From a bacterium (GTDB lineage Bacteria; Sysuimicrobiota; Sysuimicrobiia; Sysuimicrobiales; Humicultoraceae): a DNA stretch of 35,076 nucleotides. Shown piece by piece: positions 18,218 through 26,193 of the stretch. The first letter of the stretch is position 1. Every line of letters starts with the position of its first letter. The position numbers and the translations under genes are program-made. Location of the stretch: contig JBGQGY010000026.1 in NCBI GenBank assembly GCA_041497675.1, forward strand, positions 1-35,076. Direction: 5' to 3'. The notes beneath the pieces were generated by a model. The model had not been told where the DNA came from, made no database searches, and saw only the letters and a list, made by a program, of their open reading frames with translations.

Positions 18218-18700
18218 ATGGAACTGAAAACCGTTCGGATCGAGAAGCCCGACGATGTCAACCTAATCCTGGGCCAGTCCCACTTCATCAAGACCGTGGA
18301 GGACCTGCATGAGGCGCTGGTGACGGCGGTGCCCCGGCTCAAATTCGGACTGGCGTTCTGCGAGTCATCCGGGCCTGCCCTGGTGCGCTGGAGCGGTACG
18401 GACCCCGATCTCGTCGAGCTCGCTCAGCAGAATGCGTTACGCCTCGCGGCCGGCCACTGTTTCATCATTTTCTTGCGCGACGCGTTTCCAATAAACGTTC
18501 TGAACGCCATCAAGACGGTCCCGGAAGTGTGCGGAATTTACTGTGCAACCGCTAATCCGGTGGAAGTGGTTTTGGCCGAGACCGAGCAGGGGCGTGGGAT
18601 CCTGGGCGTGATCGATGGCGTGAAGTCGAAGGGCATCGAAGGCGAACCAGACATCGCCAACCGCAAGGAATTCTTGCGAAAGATCGGCTATAAATTGTAG
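18218..18700 (+). CDS. Adenosine-specific kinase family protein (DUF355)
   Basis: NLILGQSHFIKTVEDL, FGLAFCESSG, AGH.F, VPEVC.IYCATANP, GRGILGVIDG, RK.FLRKIGYK. Confidence 0.9.
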   Translation: MELKTVRIEKPDDVNLILGQSHFIKTVEDLHEALVTAVPRLKFGLAFCESSGPALVRWSGTDPDLVELAQQNALRLAAGHCFIIFLRDAFPINVLNAIKTVPEVCGIYCATANPVEVVLAETEQGRGILGVIDGVKSKGIEGEPDIANRKEFLRKIGYKL

Positions 18701-20091
18701 ACAGGAAGACTGACCGTAAACCTGGCCCCACCCTGCGCGCTGTTTTCCGCCCTGAGCTCCCCGCCCTGGGCGGTCGTGAGGCGCTTCGCTATCGCCAGCC
18801 CGAGACCGGCGCCCCGCTGCCCGCTCCGCGAGCGGTCCACCTTGAAGAACCGGTCGAAGATATTGGGCAGATCCTGCGGGGGAATGCCGGGCCCGGTATC
18901 CTCGACGGTCACCGTGACGCGTCCGTGCTGATCCGCGACCGCGACCGTGACCCGCCCTCCACGGGGAGTGAACTTCAGGGCGTTGTCGAGCAGGTTGCCC
19001 AGCACCTGGACCATGCGGTCGGGATCGGCGCGGATAGAACCGCCGCGGACCGGTCCGTCCTGCGTGAGCGCGATCCCCGCCTGTCCGGCGCGCGCCCGGA
19101 ATGATTCAATCGCTTCGTGTGCCAGGTGGGCGAGGTCGGTCGGCACCATCCGGAGTTGCACGCTTCCGGATTCGATCGCGGACAGGTCCAGGAGGTTCTC
19201 CACGAGTACACGCAGGCGTTCGACTTCCCGTTCGATGGCATCTATCAGAAAGGTCGTTTCGGGTTCCGCCGCCGGCACGCTGCCACGCAGCGCTTCGACG
19301 GCAACGGTGAGGTTCGCGACCGGTGTCCTGAGCTCGTGGGAGGCGTCGGCGACAAACTCGCGGCGCATGGTATCGAGACGCTCGAGTTCGGCAGCCATGT
19401 AGTTGAGCGAACGCGCCAGATCTCCGAGTTCATCGGCTGTGCGGACGGGGATCCGCTGGTCAAGTTCGCCGGCCGCCATCCGCGCGGTGGCCACTCGCAT
19501 CTCCCGGATCGGACCCGCGATCCGGCTGGCCAGCAGCAGGCTGACAATGGCGGCCCAGAGCATCGTGACGACTAGCGTCCAGCCGACGAAGGTCCGAATG
19601 TGGCTGATCTGATCCGCCAGGGCCACGAGCGGCAACGCCACGTAGACGGCCCCGAGCACTTCGTCGCCGCGGCGGACGGGAACGGTGCCGTAAACGACCG
19701 GCACGCCGTTGACCGTGGATGACCCCGACGTCTCCTGACCATGGACGGCCCGTGCCAGTCCTTCGCGCTCGACGCGGCCCTCGACCCGCAAAGCGGGAGT
19801 CGTCGAGTAATCGACCAACACGACCTGCGCGTGGTCGACGATGATCACTGAGGGATTTCCCGGATACTGCGTCCCGAGGAACTCGAGCTGTGTGCGAGTT
19901 CGATCGCGGGCGGCTACGGCGTCGCGCACGTGCACCGCGATCAGCCTCGCCTGCGCCAGCAGGCTCGTTTCCACCTGTGCCAGATACCGTGCTTCGGAAT
20001 CTCGCGTAAGGTGTACTCCGAGGAACGACAGCGCCAGCAGGATGACGACCAGGTACGTCGCCATCAAGCGCCAGCGGATGCTGCGGAACAT
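18688..20091 (-). CDS. Sensor histidine kinase (HAMP, HisKA, HATPase)
   Basis: RREFVADASHELRTP, QVLGNLLDNALKFT, DTGPGI, GAGLGLAI. Confidence 0.95.
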   Translation of the reverse strand: MFRSIRWRLMATYLVVILLALSFLGVHLTRDSEARYLAQVETSLLAQARLIAVHVRDAVAARDRTRTQLEFLGTQYPGNPSVIIVDHAQVVLVDYSTTPALRVEGRVEREGLARAVHGQETSGSSTVNGVPVVYGTVPVRRGDEVLGAVYVALPLVALADQISHIRTFVGWTLVVTMLWAAIVSLLLASRIAGPIREMRVATARMAAGELDQRIPVRTADELGDLARSLNYMAAELERLDTMRREFVADASHELRTPVANLTVAVEALRGSVPAAEPETTFLIDAIEREVERLRVLVENLLDLSAIESGSVQLRMVPTDLAHLAHEAIESFRARAGQAGIALTQDGPVRGGSIRADPDRMVQVLGNLLDNALKFTPRGGRVTVAVADQHGRVTVTVEDTGPGIPPQDLPNIFDRFFKVDRSRSGQRGAGLGLAIAKRLTTAQGGELRAENSAQGGARFTVSLPVYNL

Positions 20092-20093
20092 GG

Positions 20094-20771
20094 TTAGCGG
20101 AACCGGTACCCGACGCCGTGGACGGTCAGAATGTGCGCCGGCGCGCTGGCGTCCCGCTCGACCTTCTCGCGAAGCCATCGAATGTGCACGTCGAGGGTCC
20201 GCACGTCGCCGACGTAATCTTCGCCCCAGACCCGATCGAGCAGATAGTCCCGTCCCAGCACCCGATCAGGATGCGTCATGAACACGCGCAGCAGGTCGAA
20301 CTCTTTTGGCGGCAGCGTGACCTCTCGTCCCCGAGCCCGTACGGTGCGAGCGGGGACGTCCATGTGGATCTCGCCCACCTCGATGACGTCCTGCTGGCCG
20401 GCATCAGCGTACGCCTGGACACGCCGGAGGTGGGCCTTGATCCGGGCGATCAATTCGCGGGGTGAGAAGGGCTTTGTCACGTAGTCGTCCGCCCCGACGT
20501 CCAGCCCGGTCACCTTGTCACCCTCGGCGGCGCGCGCCGTGAGCATGATGACTGGAGCCGTGCTGAACAAGCGGATCCGGCGGCACACCTCGACCCCGTC
20601 GAGGCCGGGCAGCGCCAGATCGAGCAGGATGAGGTCGGGACGCGACGTCTTGGCGGCATCCACGCCATCGGGGCCGTCGCGGGCGACCACAACCTCGTAG
20701 CCCTCGCGCGTGAGCAGCGAACGAAGCGAGGTCACCATCGTCTCCTCGTCCTCGACGATGAGGATCTTCAC
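20094..20771 (-). CDS. OmpR/PhoB-family response regulator
   Basis: KILIVEDE, LLDLALPG.DG, GADDYVTKPFS, RTLDVHIRWLREK, TVHGVGYRF. Confidence 0.96.
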   Translation of the reverse strand: MKILIVEDEETMVTSLRSLLTREGYEVVVARDGPDGVDAAKTSRPDLILLDLALPGLDGVEVCRRIRLFSTAPVIMLTARAAEGDKVTGLDVGADDYVTKPFSPRELIARIKAHLRRVQAYADAGQQDVIEVGEIHMDVPARTVRARGREVTLPPKEFDLLRVFMTHPDRVLGRDYLLDRVWGEDYVGDVRTLDVHIRWLREKVERDASAPAHILTVHGVGYRFR

Positions 20772-21403
20772 GGCACCCGCGCAACGATCAGCCGAACCAT
20801 CCCCAGAGGCGCCAGGTCCTCGAGGGTGTCAATCTCCGGCCCTGCCGCGCGCACGTTGTCCACAGTCCGGCGGCTGATGTGCGCCCCCAGCACGCGCACG
20901 ACGACCGGGTCCAGCCAGTCCATCACCCGGCCGAGGACGCGGTGCTCGGCGCGCATGTGCTCGATGAGGTAGAGATGACCCCCTGGCCGGACCACCCGGC
21001 GTAGCTCACGCAGCCCCTGCACCGGATCGGGCACGGAGCAGAACACGAACGTCGCCACGGCGGCCTCGAAGGCGGCATCGGGAAAGGCCAGCGCCTGCGC
21101 GTCCATCAGGTGCAGGCGGACATCGAGCCTCAGCCGGGCGGCCCGGTGCGTCGCCCGGGCCAGCATCCTTGGGCTGATGTCCACAGCGGAAACCGTCGCC
21201 CCGGCCGGATAGAAGGGCATGTTCTTGCCGGTGCCGACGCCGACTTCCAGCACGCGGTGCGCCGGCACGAGGCGCCAGAGACGCGCGCGCCAGCGCCTGA
21301 TCCGGCCGCGCTCGGGCAGCCACTCCACAAGGTCGTAGAGCGGCGCCAGGCGGTCGTAGCGCGCCCGGGTCAGGCCGATGGGCTCGACGCCGACGCCTGT
21401 CAC
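20768..21403 (-). CDS. Class I SAM-dependent methyltransferase
   Basis: YDRLAPLYD, VLEVGVGTGKN, VDISPRML, MDAQAL.FPD, TFVFCSVPDP, RRVVRPGG; GTG start at 21403. Confidence 0.9.
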   Translation of the reverse strand: MTGVGVEPIGLTRARYDRLAPLYDLVEWLPERGRIRRWRARLWRLVPAHRVLEVGVGTGKNMPFYPAGATVSAVDISPRMLARATHRAARLRLDVRLHLMDAQALAFPDAAFEAAVATFVFCSVPDPVQGLRELRRVVRPGGHLYLIEHMRAEHRVLGRVMDWLDPVVVRVLGAHISRRTVDNVRAAGPEIDTLEDLAPLGMVRLIVARVP

Positions 21404-21684
21404 GGCGGTCCGGCCGGGGTCACGCCGGCCTGCTGAGGGCAGCCGCAGCCGGATTCGTCCGCGCGGGGGGCCGACCGGCCCCGGTGGAACAGCTCTCAGA
21501 GGCACCGGCCCCAGAGGGCCGGCACCCCGGCAAGCAGGCCGCCCAGGGCGAGGGCAAAGCCTGCCGCCCCACGCAGCCTGAGCGCCAGCGCGACCAGCAG
21601 GACCCCTCCCACAACCCGCGCCCACCTGCCGTCAGGGCTGTTGGCCAACGCGATCAGGCGCCCCACGGGCTGCGTCTTCACCAT
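21400..21684 (-). CDS. DUF2892/YgaP-like small membrane protein with in-frame TGA at 21496-21498; candidate selenoprotein (94 aa if read through)
   Basis: MVKTQ...SPDGRWARVVGG...GRCL-[TGA]-ELFHRG...GCGCP...GPP-TGA; the second stop overlaps the methyltransferase GTG; hairpin 13 nt after the TGA. Confidence 0.6.
21467..21482 (-). promoter_or_regulatory. Putative bacterial SECIS-like hairpin
   Basis: Minus strand GGGGCC-GGTC-GGCCCC; the loop begins 19 nt after the in-frame UGA. Confidence 0.5.
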
Positions 21685-21956
21685 GATAGATAAGTCCTCC
21701 CGGTTCGCATCTTCCACAGATAGAACTTGTGATACCTACACCGGGAACGACGCTCCGGAGGGGCGTTCGATTCCCGCCGAATCCACCCATCATCGCTGGT
21801 TCCCCCTCTCGCCTGCGTACCGTCATCCTCAGTCCATATGGTGGCCGGTCGGCATGCACTTATCATGGAGGGGCCGTGAATTCCTCGTGAACGGGCCGCC
21901 CGGAGTGCCCGCCCCGTTTCTGGCGCGCAGGTGTCCCTAGGGGGAACTCGGCAGGC

Positions 21957-22454
21957 TCACTGGATCGGCAACGTCCACCGCAGGGTTCGTTCGGCCACGC
22001 CGCCGAGGTCACGGACAGTCAGTTCCAGCGTCTTGGCCTGCGTGTCAATCGCCTGGCCCGTCTGATTGGCCTTCGGGAAGAGCAGGCCGCCTGCCCGATG
22101 GTGCGACCCGTCGGCCGTGGCTACCCACCTGACCGGCGTGACCTCCTGTCCGCGGTCGTTGCGCAACACAATGTTCTTGATGAAGTCGTACTTGCTCAGG
22201 TCTCCCGAGTGTGCATCCAGCGTGATCGCGAACACCACGTTGCGCTCGAGGTCCACCTTGCCGGACAATGGATCGCTAGGGCTGGCTTTGAAGTAGGCAG
22301 AGGTTACGTAGACGGCCTTGACGGTAATGCCCCCCTGGGCGTCGGTCCGCGTCGCTTGCGCTGGAGTTTGCCCTCTTGCGATCCCCGCCGAGAGGACCGC
22401 GAGGGCGCCGACGATCAGGACACCGGTCTGGGCCAATCGAGTTGTGAGTCGCAT
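21957..22454 (-). CDS. Exported hypothetical protein with His motifs
   Basis: Signal peptide; ITLDAHSGDLSKYD and W..ADGSHHRAG.LLFP; RBS GAGGGA. Confidence 0.7.
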   Translation of the reverse strand: MRLTTRLAQTGVLIVGALAVLSAGIARGQTPAQATRTDAQGGITVKAVYVTSAYFKASPSDPLSGKVDLERNVVFAITLDAHSGDLSKYDFIKNIVLRNDRGQEVTPVRWVATADGSHHRAGGLLFPKANQTGQAIDTQAKTLELTVRDLGGVAERTLRWTLPIQ

Positions 22455-22514
22455 GAGAGTTCCCTCCGTCAGTCAATAGCGTGTAGCGTCTCGGTTCCCG
22501 CCGCTGCGGAGCCG

Positions 22515-22640
22515 CTACCGCGATCCAAGCAGCAGCCAGAGAACGGCCGCAATAAAGGTTCCGCTGGCTACAACGATCAACGCGATGAGGAGACGGTCGC
22601 CCCGTGTCGGCGAAGCATCAGAATCGAGCCGCCGGGCCAT
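22515..22640 (-). CDS. Small single-TM protein (41 aa)
   Basis: GAGGAGGG RBS then MARRLDS...LLIALIVVASGTFIAAVLWLLLGSR. Confidence 0.5.
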   Translation of the reverse strand: MARRLDSDASPTRGDRLLIALIVVASGTFIAAVLWLLLGSR

Positions 22641-22666
22641 AGGTCTTCCCTCCTCGTAGGCAGCGC

Positions 22667-23029
22667 TTATCGCCCCGTCCCGGGCATCTGCCGCATGACG
22701 CCCTGGGCCATGCCCATCCAACCCTGCATCATCCCCATCTGAGACTGCAGCAGCTTGAGGTACTCATACATCGGCCGCTCGTTAGCGGTGAGCAGATCCG
22801 GGTTGATCTTGTCGAGCTGCACTCGCATGGCCTGCAGATTTGCGGTCATTCGCGTCATCTGCTGCTGCATCCGCCCCATTGGCATCTGCTGGCCCGGGCC
22901 CATCATCTGACCTCCCGGCCTCATGGGCGTCTGCGCGAGCGGTTGAGCCAGCGTGCGGTCGGCATTCCACAAGGCCCCCAGTGCGACGAAGAACACCAGG
23001 GCGAGTACAAGCAGCGTCAGTGATCTCAA
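22667..23029 (-). CDS. Exported Met/Gln-rich helical protein, possible Cu(I) binder
   Basis: TTG start after GGGGGA, signal peptide, QMMGPGQQMPMGRMQQQM...QMGMMQGWMGM. Confidence 0.65.
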   Translation of the reverse strand: MRSLTLLVLALVFFVALGALWNADRTLAQPLAQTPMRPGGQMMGPGQQMPMGRMQQQMTRMTANLQAMRVQLDKINPDLLTANERPMYEYLKLLQSQMGMMQGWMGMAQGVMRQMPGTGR

Positions 23030-23096
23030 TTCGGTTCCCCCCGACGGATTGAGTTGTCTGTCGGCCCCACTCTGCACGAGCGGCGGCACACAGGTG

Positions 23097-23111
23097 TTAA
23101 GCGTACGTTAA
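23097..23111 (-). promoter_or_regulatory. TTAA-N7-TTAA regulator box
   Basis: Minus strand TTAAcgtacgcTTAAc, with CAGAGT 26 nt from the start of the second TTAA; upstream of 22667-23029. Confidence 0.6.
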
Positions 23112-23299
23112 GCCTGGCGGCGGTCCTTCAGTTTCGGCGCCAGAATGGACATCAGGATGATCCATGCGAGAATGAACACCCAAACCGCGCCGCCGTACCG
23201 GGCCACCGGCCCGCCCGCAGAAGCGGCGATGGCGAACACGATTGCTGCAGCCAGCGCCATGCCGGCGCCGAGCATGCCGGCAGTCCGCGGCATCTTCAT
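23108..23299 (-). CDS. Small 2-TM membrane protein (63 aa)
   Basis: [22 protein letters not shown]...[26 protein letters not shown]-coupled to copA. Confidence 0.65.
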
Positions 23300-26193
23300 G
23301 ATCCACCTCCCGCGACTGGTGCCAGGGCTACGCTTTCCGCGCCGGACGCCGGCTCGCGCTGCAGCGACGGGATGAACCGCTTGAGCAGCAGCGTGTTCAG
23401 TGTGACCGTCAGTGAACTGATGGCCATGAGGAAGGCCGCCAGCTCCGGGGACACGAGTTGACGCGTCCACGGGTAGAGCAGGCCGGCCGCCAGGGGAATC
23501 GTCACCGCGTTGTAGACGAACGCCCAGAAGAGGTTCTGTTTCACTTTCCGCATGGTGGCGCGGGCGACTTCGATCGTCGTGACGACGTCGCGGAGATCAT
23601 CCTTGACCAGTACGACGTGTCCGGTCTCCTTGGCGATGTCGGTGCCCGACCCGATTGCCATCCCCACGTCGGCCTGCGCCAGGGCCGGTGCGTCGTTGAT
23701 CCCGTCGCCGACCATGGCGACGCGGCGGCCCGCCGCCTGCAGGGCCCGGACCTCCACGGCCTTGTCCTGCGGCAGGACCTCGGCCAAGACCCGGTCGATG
23801 CCCAGCTGCCGAGCGATCGCCTCGGCCGTGCGACGGTTGTCGCCTGTGAGCATCGCGACTTCCAATCCGAGGTCATGCAGCAGGCGGATGGCGTCGGCCG
23901 AATGGGCCTTCAGTGTGTCTGCGACCGCGATCAGTCCGGCGAGGCGGCCGTCGGCCGCGAGGAACATTACAGTCTTCCCTTCGTATTCGAGACGCTCCGC
24001 ATCCGTCGAGACGGCGTCTACCGCGACCCCGCCGTCCAGCATCAATTTGCGGTTGCCGAGCACGATCGCATGCCCCGCGGCGTGGGCGGTGACGCCGTGA
24101 CCCGGAACGGCCTCGAACCTCTCTGGAGAGGCCACAGAGATGCCGCGGTCGCGGGCGCCGCGAACGATGGCCTCGCCCAGTGGGTGCTCCGAGTTCACCT
24201 CGGCCGCCGCGGCCAGCCCCAGCACCTCGGCCGCCGCGACACCCTGGACCGGCACGATGTCGGTGACCGCGGGTTCCCCGCGCGTCAGCGTACCCGTCTT
24301 ATCGAAGATAATTGCCGTCAGTTTGCTTGCGGCCTCGACCGCGTCCGCGCCCTTAAACAGGATGCCGTGCTCGGCCGCCTTGCCCGTGCCGGCCATCATG
24401 GCGCTCGGCGTGGCCATGCCCACGGCGCAGGGGCACGAGATGACCAGCACCGCCACCGAGACCAGCAGCGCGAAGCCGAAGACGCCGACGCCGGCCAGCG
24501 TGTACGGCGTCAGCATCAGGCGCGTCGCCGGACTGAAGAAGAGCCCGTAGCCCACGAAGAACCAGAACAGGAAAACTGTCAGGGAGAGCACATGGACCCA
24601 GAAGATGAACTTTCCGGCGACCAGGTCGGCGAGCTTCTGAATCGGTGCCTTGCTCGCCTGGGCATTCTCAACCAGCGCGATGATTTGGGCCAGCGCGGTC
24701 TCGCGGCCGACGCGATTGGCGCGGAAGCGGAAGGCGCCGGTCTTGTTCATCGTGCCGCCGATGACCTCGTCGCCGGCCCGCTTTTCCACAGGCATCGACT
24801 CGCCGGTCAGCATCGACTGGTCAACGGCGGAATACCCTTCGAGTACCACGCCGTCCACCGGGATGCGCTCCCCGGGTCGTACGACGACGACATCGCCGAC
24901 TTCCACTTCGTCTGCGGGGATTTCCACTTCGGTCTCGCCGCGGGCGACCCGCGCGACCTTCGGCTGGAGGCTCATCAGTTTGCGGATCGCCTCAGACGCC
25001 CTGCCTCGCGTCAGGGCTTCAAGATAGCGCCCCAGGATGATGAAGGCAGTCAGCAGCGCCGCGGCCTCATAGAAAACAGCCTCGGGCCCGCCGAATCCCG
25101 CGCCCGGCCAGAAGGTGTTGATCACCGCGATCAGGTACGCGGCCCCGATGCCGGTGGCGTACAGCAGGTTCATATCGGCGACGCCGTGGCGCAGCCCGCG
25201 AAAGGAGTTCGCGAAGAACTGCCAGCCGGGGCCAAAGACGATCGGCGTCGTCAGACCGAAGAGCAGCAGCGGGTTGCCCAAGAACTTCGGGATGTACCGC
25301 GGCAGGATCCACACATCCTGGAAGGTGCCGAGCATCACAACGAGCGCGAGAGGCCAGGCGATGAGCATCCATCGGCCCTGGGTGACGATCTCACGCTGGC
25401 GGGCTTCCCGCTCCCGGTCGAGCGCGGCGGTGCCTTCGAGGCGCTCAGCGGCATCGTAGCCGAGGTCACGGATCGTACGCTTGACCTGCGCCGGTGTGAC
25501 CGTTCCTGGGTGGTACTCGACCCGGCCGGTCCCGGCGTTGAGATTCACGGCCACCGAGACGATGCCGTGTAGATTGCCGACGGCGCCCTCGATGCTGGCC
25601 ACGCACGAGGCGCACGACATCCCGGTGATCTGGAGCTGCAGCGTCTCTTTGCCAGCGGTCTCAACGAAGGTGCCGGGACCGGCCCCACCCGCGGCTGCTG
25701 GAACCATGTCCGAGTTCCCTTCTGGCGCGCACTCCATCCGCGAATGACGGCGGATCGTGCGGATCATCATGCCGATCCCCAACGCATTCGTTGCCAGCCC
25801 AAACAGGATGACCGGCACTTTGTAGGTGGTGAAAAAGACAGCCGCCCCGGACAGCCCGATGATAGGGAGCACATCGGCCAGATGGTGGAGGCAGCACGCG
25901 ACCATGGACGTCGTCGATGTGGCCGTGCCACCGGCCGCCATGGTGGCCGCCGACCGTGCGCCGTGATTCTGCCTCACCACCTGTCGCAGATGCGCAAACA
26001 GCCCGATCTGGATGCCAAATCCCGTTGCGACCGCGGCGACGAAGTACCAGTCGGTCAGCAGGAGTTCGACCACGTGCGGCCAGGAGGCCGACCCGATCCG
26101 GACGATCCCCATGTAGAGACCGACGAGCGCCAGCGCGCCGAGCGCTCCCGCCGCAACCGGTCTCCGTAAGTCAACGGTCGTCTGTCTATTCAT
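23296..26193 (-). CDS. copA: Cu(I)-translocating P1B-type ATPase with extra N-terminal membrane domain
   Basis: [38 protein letters not shown] and MAISS (P1B-1 signature); the first ~150 aa form a TM domain with MVACCLHH. Confidence 0.93.

Follow-up and report, generated by a model that had tools for sequence, protein, structure and literature searches.

The 35,076-nt contig JBGQGY010000026.1 (assembly GCA_041497675.1), from a bacterium of the Sysuimicrobiota (family Humicultoraceae) and referred to here over its full length as the window, carries on its minus strand a small gene followed directly by a gene for a class I S-adenosylmethionine (SAM) methyltransferase (20771..21403). We address here the decoding of the UGA codon that terminates the conventional reading of the small gene, and its possible translation as selenocysteine (Sec, U). 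With translation table 11, the small open reading frame (ORF) (21499..21684) begins with an ATG at 21684, 10 nt downstream of a Shine-Dalgarno-like GGGAGGA (21695..21701), and runs for 62 codons, ending in ...GVPALWGRCL, to a TGA at 21498-21496 (21496..21498); GGAGG-type motifs likewise precede the small-gene starts of homologous loci L013, L014 and L016. The 62-residue product contains two predicted helices, is a divergent relative of YgaP-like_TM proteins and has C61-L62 as its C-terminus, which makes the TGA, codon 63, the third position of a proposed C-x-U motif. When this TGA is read as U, the frame stays open for 31 codons past TGA63, ELFHRGRSAPRADESGCGCPQQAGVTPAGPP, until a TGA at 21402-21400 that overlaps the methyltransferase GTG at 21403 (GTGA), and the extended product, with Cys61-Leu62-TGA63, comprises 94 residues. 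The extension consists of a 13-nt spacer (21483..21495; codons E-L-F-H plus 1 nt), a hairpin resembling a selenocysteine insertion sequence (SECIS) with the sequence GGGGCC-GGUC-GGCCCC (21467..21482; loop at 21476-21473) and the remaining C-terminal tail (21403..21466), which was not conserved in comparisons of homologs, followed by the terminal TGA (21400..21402). The stem of the hairpin begins 13 nt and its loop 19 nt 3' of the UGA. On the Cys two codons before the TGA, the 31 open codons reaching the methyltransferase start and the placement of the hairpin, direct reading of the DNA agreed with the original prediction made for this locus from its letters.

Comparison with related genomes revealed that the TGA is a constant feature of the small gene. 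A six-frame search of 61 relatives located the gene at seven places in six genomes, every match containing one TGA, and a metagenome scan added three contigs. All ten of these DNA copies, which represent three genera and the three metagenome contigs, contained C-x-TGA at the same codon, in line with the TGA conservation that the original prediction had proposed looking for among homologs. Extending the search by profile to all 94 phylum genomes revealed no additional genome with the small gene; five other genomes that scored contained either a canonical YgaP-like_TM protein (G009) or members of an unrelated '...NFCAGC...' family. Scanning genome contigs with alignment A2 returned three loci, all duplicates of G016 and G028, and the same type of scan with the single window protein gave no match. 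Two of the ten copies are damaged, that of G026 by a deletion that removed the 3' arm of the hairpin together with the methyltransferase N-terminus and that of G027 by a frameshift in the first half of the gene. Contigs from four other sequencing runs covered the TGA of the window without a differing letter, one of these runs, X14, being possibly the window's own source.

Several observations made during these searches concern variants or neighboring families. In run X16, one 56-letter contig joined 21402 to 21528 and left out the intervening 125 nt, which encode the C-x-U end and include both hairpin and tail; the junction could be a deletion variant like that of G026, and only 26 letters lie on its shorter side, so an artefact is possible. 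One contig of run X12 was 3 nt short at 21396, just inside the methyltransferase start region. Finally, five loci of genus g3 (L017, L018, L019, L042 and L044) scored weakly against the query and encode a different membrane-protein family ending …NVLWNFCAGCFLFYQLRRAGLL, which has no demonstrated relation to the small gene; several copies have a TGA about ten codons later.

Protein databases contain the same family almost exclusively in a form that stops at the TGA. Searching 1.84 billion representative sequences with phmmer gave six matches. Five belong to the family, and their last residue is the one encoded just before the TGA; the other, a partial match within a 1,738-residue protein, was rejected as spurious. 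Among 5.8 billion proteins searched with a profile, 31 clusters matched, of which 30 end exactly at C-x. The remaining one, P0011 (82 residues, from a single contig), reads ...GFCL-C-EFFHRSR, with Cys in place of Sec and the same frame open beyond it. Its alignment to the G016 copy, translated through the TGA, is gap-free, sets Cys opposite Sec and shows identity over the last 12 residues. By this alignment P0011 and the TGA copies would form a classical Sec/Cys pair, resting on one protein sequence, and the homolog with Cys that the original prediction had suggested seeking is represented by one database entry.

The hairpin downstream of the TGA was retained to nearly the same extent as the TGA itself. 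It was present at unchanged spacing in nine of the ten DNA copies, with the consensus [CC]GG(G/A)GCC-GGUC-GGC(C/U)CC[GG], and the 13-nt spacer between UGA and stem was constant in length among homologs, though the sequence just past the hairpin contains many insertions and deletions. In alignment A3, which consists of nine sequences and is the basis for the pairing and column counts, 93 % of cells pair, and 13 of the 16 core hairpin columns were invariant compared to none of the 11 columns immediately downstream. Pair 31-42 is G-C in five sequences and A-U in four, a compensatory change that is non-synonymous on its 5' side (Gly to Ser) and synonymous on its 3' side. At L049, the 5' arm has lost 1 nt, which alters the frame (HRGGRPRS versus HRGRSAP) and leaves the stem and GGUC loop intact; the peptide is altered and the structure is spared, and therefore the constraint at this place acts on the RNA. 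These results support the hairpin described in the original prediction as a structure kept at a fixed distance from the UGA.

The combination of TGA, spacing and loop is also rare in the genome. Among 105,380 TGA trinucleotides, 87 were followed at 14-25 nt by a GGUC-loop stem of at least 5 bp, and just two of these, the window's TGA included, lie in a coding-like frame. Of 1,350 long coding-like ORFs terminated by TGA, 13 had any stem of at least 6 bp with a GU loop at matching spacing and none had a GGUC tetraloop there. A covariance model of the UGA and hairpin, R1, scored the window locus at 54.2 bits; the second-best match in the genome, a partial one at G000:C17:17236-17261, reached 21.7 bits (E about 0.035). 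The UGA-to-loop distance of 19 nt falls inside the range of 16-37 nt given for bacterial SECIS elements (PMC10778597).

Downstream of the UGA, signs of coding were confined to the codons adjacent to it. In codons +2 and +3 past the UGA the second position is an invariant T (columns T20 and T23), and variation at the first and third yields the residues L/F/V/M and F/L/V/I, respectively; judged from the alignment, invariant second positions with free first and third positions are a coding pattern. Past the hairpin, conservation ceased, and tail length ranged from 18 to 31 codons among copies. Thus, conservation of downstream coding sequence, raised as a check in the original prediction, was observed as a coding pattern across the four codons after the UGA but not in the remainder of the tail. 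A 'CGC' in the tail, which had been included among the features of the predicted 94-residue CxU protein, was not conserved in homologs and was rejected as a functional motif.

The genome contains the machinery needed to translate such a gene. The assembly (272 contigs, 98.6 % complete) carries selA (462 bits), the wing domain of selB and a tRNA-SeC on the same contig as selA, and a selD with an in-frame TGA of its own, in the motif ...ACAGUASKL (G000:C39:14954-16036), so that selA, selB, selD and tRNA-Sec, listed in the original prediction as genes to look for, are all represented. SelA was also found in four of the five other genomes that carry the small gene and in 77 of the 94 genomes of the phylum, and so its co-occurrence with the small gene does not discriminate. 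A scan for coding frames interrupted by TGA gave 189 candidates, mostly adjacent genes in one frame; the selenoprotein genes recovered from it are a lower bound. At least three further genes with an in-frame TGA match catalogued selenoprotein types once read through. These are a ResA-like WAxxUGC gene (NF041054; G000:C15:38883-39995), whose 248 bits fall short of the 300-bit cut-off; a Prx-like gene with the motif DWUPYC (C19:25599-26636); and a PDO_seleno_TRX gene (TIGR02187; C218:1225-1953) with TPTUPHC, which at 221 bits passed its cut-off of 185. A search of the genome for formate dehydrogenase found no TGA-containing FdhA.

The hairpins of these catalogued genes have the same layout as that of the small gene. 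The WAxxUGC gene on C15 reads UGA, 14 nt and CCUGCC-GGUCU-GGCAGG, and the other two genes of catalogued type read UGA, 14 nt and GGCGGCC-AGGCU-GGCCGCC or CCAGCUC-GUG-GAGCUGG. For the WAxxUGC gene, TGA was present in six of six matches among 34 genomes of the family, and the hairpin was conserved in all five loci inspected, with the loops GGUCU (three loci), AGUCU (one) and CGUGU (one). The counts for SelA (77 of 94) and for the WAxxUGC gene (34 genomes) take in the unpublished genomes G010 and/or G019, whereas statements on the small gene and the methyltransferase draw on other genomes. Because the window hairpin matches those of the catalogued genes, its layout is that of the SECIS used by the known selenoprotein genes of the clade. 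The SECIS of Escherichia coli fdhF likewise has a GGUC loop, and fdhF and the WAxxUGC genes share with the small gene a UGA followed by a 13-14 nt spacer, a G+C-rich stem of 6-8 bp and a loop of 4-5 nt containing GGUC or GU at 19-21 nt from the UGA. In contrast to them, the stem sequence of the small gene is specific to its family, and its hairpin lacks an evident bulged U.

Analysis of the protein itself indicated a distant membership in a known membrane family. The window protein matched no Pfam and no NCBIfam model at E<=1, and its relatives scored 9.5-17.5 bits on Pfam YgaP-like_TM (PF11127), which has a gathering cut-off of 25.3 bits. Nevertheless, hhalign aligned the family profile to the canonical YgaP-like_TM protein of G009, itself scoring 40.2 bits on PF11127, with a probability of 95.4 % (E = 1.9e-8). 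The DUF2892/YgaP-like label of the original prediction was thus recovered by profile-profile alignment but not by the Pfam models. These data partly show that the small protein is a divergent membrane protein of the YgaP-like_TM (DUF2892) type, with two predicted helices and the conserved family Cys where the second helix ends. In G009 and G058, canonical members resemble it in their length of about 60-80 residues, their two hydrophobic helices (predicted for the small protein), an N-terminal ...SP.GR..R..GG... motif and the position of this Cys; they differ in continuing C-L-F-A-P-L-F-G where the small protein has C-x-U-x-hydrophobic-hydrophobic and, at L041 and L025, in lacking a methyltransferase gene on their 3' side, whereas the small gene has a dedicated one. 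In the hhalign alignment C61 falls on the canonical Cys and Sec63 on a Phe; therefore Sec would be an addition beside the family Cys and not a replacement of it. An AlphaFold2 (AF2) model of low confidence (mean pLDDT 58) placed helices at residues 5-14, 17-36 and 40-69, followed by a disordered tail, and a sequence search of the PDB returned nothing relevant. Both termini of E. coli YgaP are cytoplasmic, and by likeness those of the small protein would be as well.

The gene on the 3' side of the small gene is its constant partner. The methyltransferase belongs to Methyltransf_11 in Pfam (82.6 bits, E = 3.2e-23), is UbiE/MenG-like, and matched no NCBIfam equivalog at cut-off, the best being PmtA with 80.5 bits versus a required 390 and the UbiE/MenG types also scoring far below; it contains no TGA and a single Cys. 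An orthologous methyltransferase, 69-76 % identical, lies directly 3' of every copy of the small gene whose contig extends that far. The stop codon of the tail overlaps or lies close to the likely methyltransferase start, as GTGA in the window, ATGA in L015 and ATGGGTAG in L012; in L013 and L031 the tail stop TGA follows the methyltransferase GTG by 9 nt. No evident Shine-Dalgarno motif precedes the methyltransferase start in the window. Across the phylum, orthologs of the methyltransferase occupy 12 places in 10 of the 94 genomes.

The wider surroundings of the two genes fall into three types. In the first, found in the window and G016:C10, a CopA-type ATPase gene lies upstream and the methyltransferase is followed by a response regulator and a kinase; in the window these are an OmpR-type response regulator (20094..20771, minus strand), whose start overlaps the methyltransferase stop, and a HAMP/HisKA sensor histidine kinase (18688..20178, minus strand). 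The second (G016:C40 and L048) consists of a NapH-like ferredoxin protein, an SQR-like flavoprotein, the small gene and the methyltransferase, with a response regulator after the methyltransferase at L048; in G027 what was seen on the upstream side was limited to the SQR-like gene's 3' end. In the third, found in genus g4, an ArsG/SfLAP-like permease precedes the small gene and methyltransferase. The operon coupling claimed in the original prediction thus applies to the methyltransferase in all three types, but to the two-component genes and the copper ATPase in some loci only; similarly, the copper ATPase of the window fits the proposed metal-stress operon, but is one of three contexts.

The window also preserves a trace of the second arrangement. 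Immediately 5' of the small ORF, a stretch of about 45 nt corresponds to the 3' end of the gene for the SQR-like flavoprotein in G016:C40, in G027 and in a metagenome contig, and this relic (21688..21735, minus strand; ...KFYLWKMRTGRTYL) indicates that the module of small gene and methyltransferase apparently moved in from an SQR-like arrangement. The sequence match suggests relocation of the module into a copper locus. Between the copper-type P-type ATPase gene and the small gene, the window contains three minus-strand ORFs (21957-23470) of 165, 140 and 120 residues, which matched no Pfam or NCBIfam model; the 140-residue product is rich in Met and Gln (…MMGPGQQMPMGRMQQQMTRM…) and recalls copper-binding periplasmic proteins.

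Some loci have the methyltransferase without an intact small gene. In genus g4 the methyltransferase often directly follows the ArsG/SfLAP-like permease, with the small gene absent, as at L061 (G032), L060 (G033) and L063 (G028:C80). At L062 (G015) there is a frameshifted remnant of the small gene with a deletion, from which the C-x-U region is gone, and at L059 (G017:C54) the usual place of the small gene, before the methyltransferase start, is taken by about four copies of a short peptide-like repeat (…EACATV…).

Considering this evidence together, we propose that the small gene encodes a 94-residue selenoprotein, decoded by SelB, whose C-x-U site would be thiophilic and act jointly with the methyltransferase. 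We regard the selenoprotein reading as probable, and SelB decoding of UGA63 at the hairpin as slightly more probable still. The membrane selenoprotein of the original prediction, with C-L-UGA and a SECIS-like hairpin, is supported by the Sec machinery, the ten of ten conserved TGA codons, the Cys homolog and the conserved hairpin. Several results weigh on the other side. Selenium incorporation is predicted from sequence. The closest canonical relative has Phe and not Cys at the Sec position, and therefore the usual Sec/Cys argument depends on P0011, a variant found as one sequence on one contig and known from protein only. The small gene is dispensable, since two genomes (G026 and G015) have it in degraded form and it is missing from G017, G032, G033 and G028:C80. 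As to the hairpin, the compensatory G-C/A-U change probably arose once, within one clade, and the fold energy of the single sequence was ordinary for GC-rich DNA (z = -0.10, with 87 of 200 shuffled sequences folding as well), justifying the caution in the original prediction that such DNA forms hairpins easily. Between 21300 and 21750, Rfam searched at E<=10 gave no family match apart from a lone chance match to a miRNA model (E = 7.2), and model R1, which is too family-specific, found no other SECIS in the genome, missing the known ones. Finally, the tail is not conserved as protein, GC3 did not separate coding from non-coding sequence across its 18-31 codons, and open frames as long as this one occur commonly here; since further frames are likewise open, the length of the open frame after the UGA is uninformative.

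Many of the same observations could be accommodated if the TGA were an ordinary stop. The protein would then have 62 residues ending in C-L, and the hairpin, within the 96 nt that precede the methyltransferase, would do other work such as mRNA stability or processing or control of methyltransferase translation. Gene callers do stop at TGA63 in 30 of the 31 clusters, and, apart from the unremarkable fold energy, the featureless tail and the empty Rfam scan, the presence of the methyltransferase without the small gene in several genomes is compatible with such an arrangement. Nevertheless, we consider an ordinary stop unlikely. The spacing between UGA and hairpin is constant despite the many insertions and deletions just downstream, the loop and layout are those of the catalogued selenoprotein genes of the same genomes, and direct reading revealed no terminator-type U-tract at the hairpin. 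In addition, P0011 reads straight through, codons +2 and +3 show the coding pattern described above, and a 62-residue product would truncate the YgaP-like domain one residue past its Cys, whereas canonical members run about ten residues longer.

If the UGA is translated, a different amino acid could in principle be inserted, since hairpins 3' of stop codons can promote read-through, and recoding to Trp, Cys or Arg by hairpin-stimulated near-cognate read-through would leave an identical DNA sequence, from which the inserted residue cannot be named. We judge this very improbable, given that a complete Sec system is present and used in the genome, that the element has the SelB-type layout of the clade's known selenoprotein genes and that the natural substitute seen at this position is Cys (P0011). 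Still less credible is a recent nonsense mutation (TGG or TGC to TGA) or assembly error, i.e. a pseudogene. Decay is visible in relatives, namely the deletion in G026, the frameshift and deletion in G015 and the frameshift in G027, but TGA occupies the same codon in all ten copies, which are spread over three genera plus the three metagenome contigs, and the contigs of four other runs (including X14, the possible source of the window) agree letter for letter at the TGA.

For the selenoprotein reading, we envision the following mechanism. UGA codon 63 would be read as Sec by SelB, which with Sec-tRNA(Sec) would bind the GGUC-loop hairpin beginning 13 nt downstream. Translation would continue through the tail, whose main job may be to carry the hairpin, and stop at or just inside the methyltransferase start, so translation of the methyltransferase would probably be coupled to that of the small gene. 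At the membrane interface, a selenenylsulfide could form within C-x-U, or the pair could bind a soft thiophilic species (a metal, a metalloid or reactive sulfur or selenium), and the protein would act together with the co-encoded SAM methyltransferase. We offer this function, a thiophilic C-x-U site cooperating with the methyltransferase, tentatively, as somewhat less than an even prospect. The copper ATPase, SQR-like enzyme and ArsG-like permease contexts fit detoxification of thiophilic species; they do not identify the substrate.

A more elaborate and improbable extension of this mechanism concerns gating by selenium. Sec might have arisen at a non-Cys position beside the family Cys, creating a new C-x-U center at the membrane interface, and because the methyltransferase start has no evident Shine-Dalgarno motif and shares nucleotides with the extended ORF's stop codon, Sec insertion would be required for methyltransferase synthesis, making the gene pair a selenium-gated translational switch for methylation or detoxification.

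Known systems resemble the pair of genes in part. Sec-ArsM, MduS and the methyltransferase/UXPK-star proteins (NF008823, NF045649 and NF047649), to which the window methyltransferase had weak sub-threshold matches, likewise combine a SAM methyltransferase with a Sec/Cys motif, but their Sec lies inside the methyltransferase polypeptide, whereas here it would be on a separate membrane protein. Small or membrane-embedded Sec and Cys proteins of heavy-metal contexts are similar in size or membrane location, in Sec-Cys pairing and in context; they differ in having no sequence relation to the small protein (NCBIfam, E<=1), in belonging to another fold family and in a motif spacing other than C-x-U.

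Comparison with published catalogues suggested that the family had been missed. Table 1 of a 2026 review (PMC13188914), which covers 119 families, has no YgaP-like_TM or DUF2892 entry, and its families listed under reference 64 carry NCBIfam accessions, models of which none matched the window protein. Term searches of the main texts describing BSepDB (PMC13326102) and deep-Sep (PMC12013277) found no mention of the family there, and a full-text literature search found no paper linking DUF2892 or YgaP to selenocysteine or selenoproteins. By these main texts and Table 1 the small family is uncatalogued, with supplementary tables being places that could hold it, and it very probably encodes Sec.

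If this is true, a selenoprotein family overlooked by catalogues and by NCBI naming models is added, and about 30 database entries now truncated at residue 53-67 need correction. It would also place Sec, as has rarely been seen, in a very small integral membrane protein, and in a little-studied lineage that is almost wholly uncultured and has SelA nearly throughout. Together with its strictly paired, dedicated methyltransferase gene, the small gene is a concrete two-gene system in which metal, metalloid or sulfur/selenium handling could be tested.

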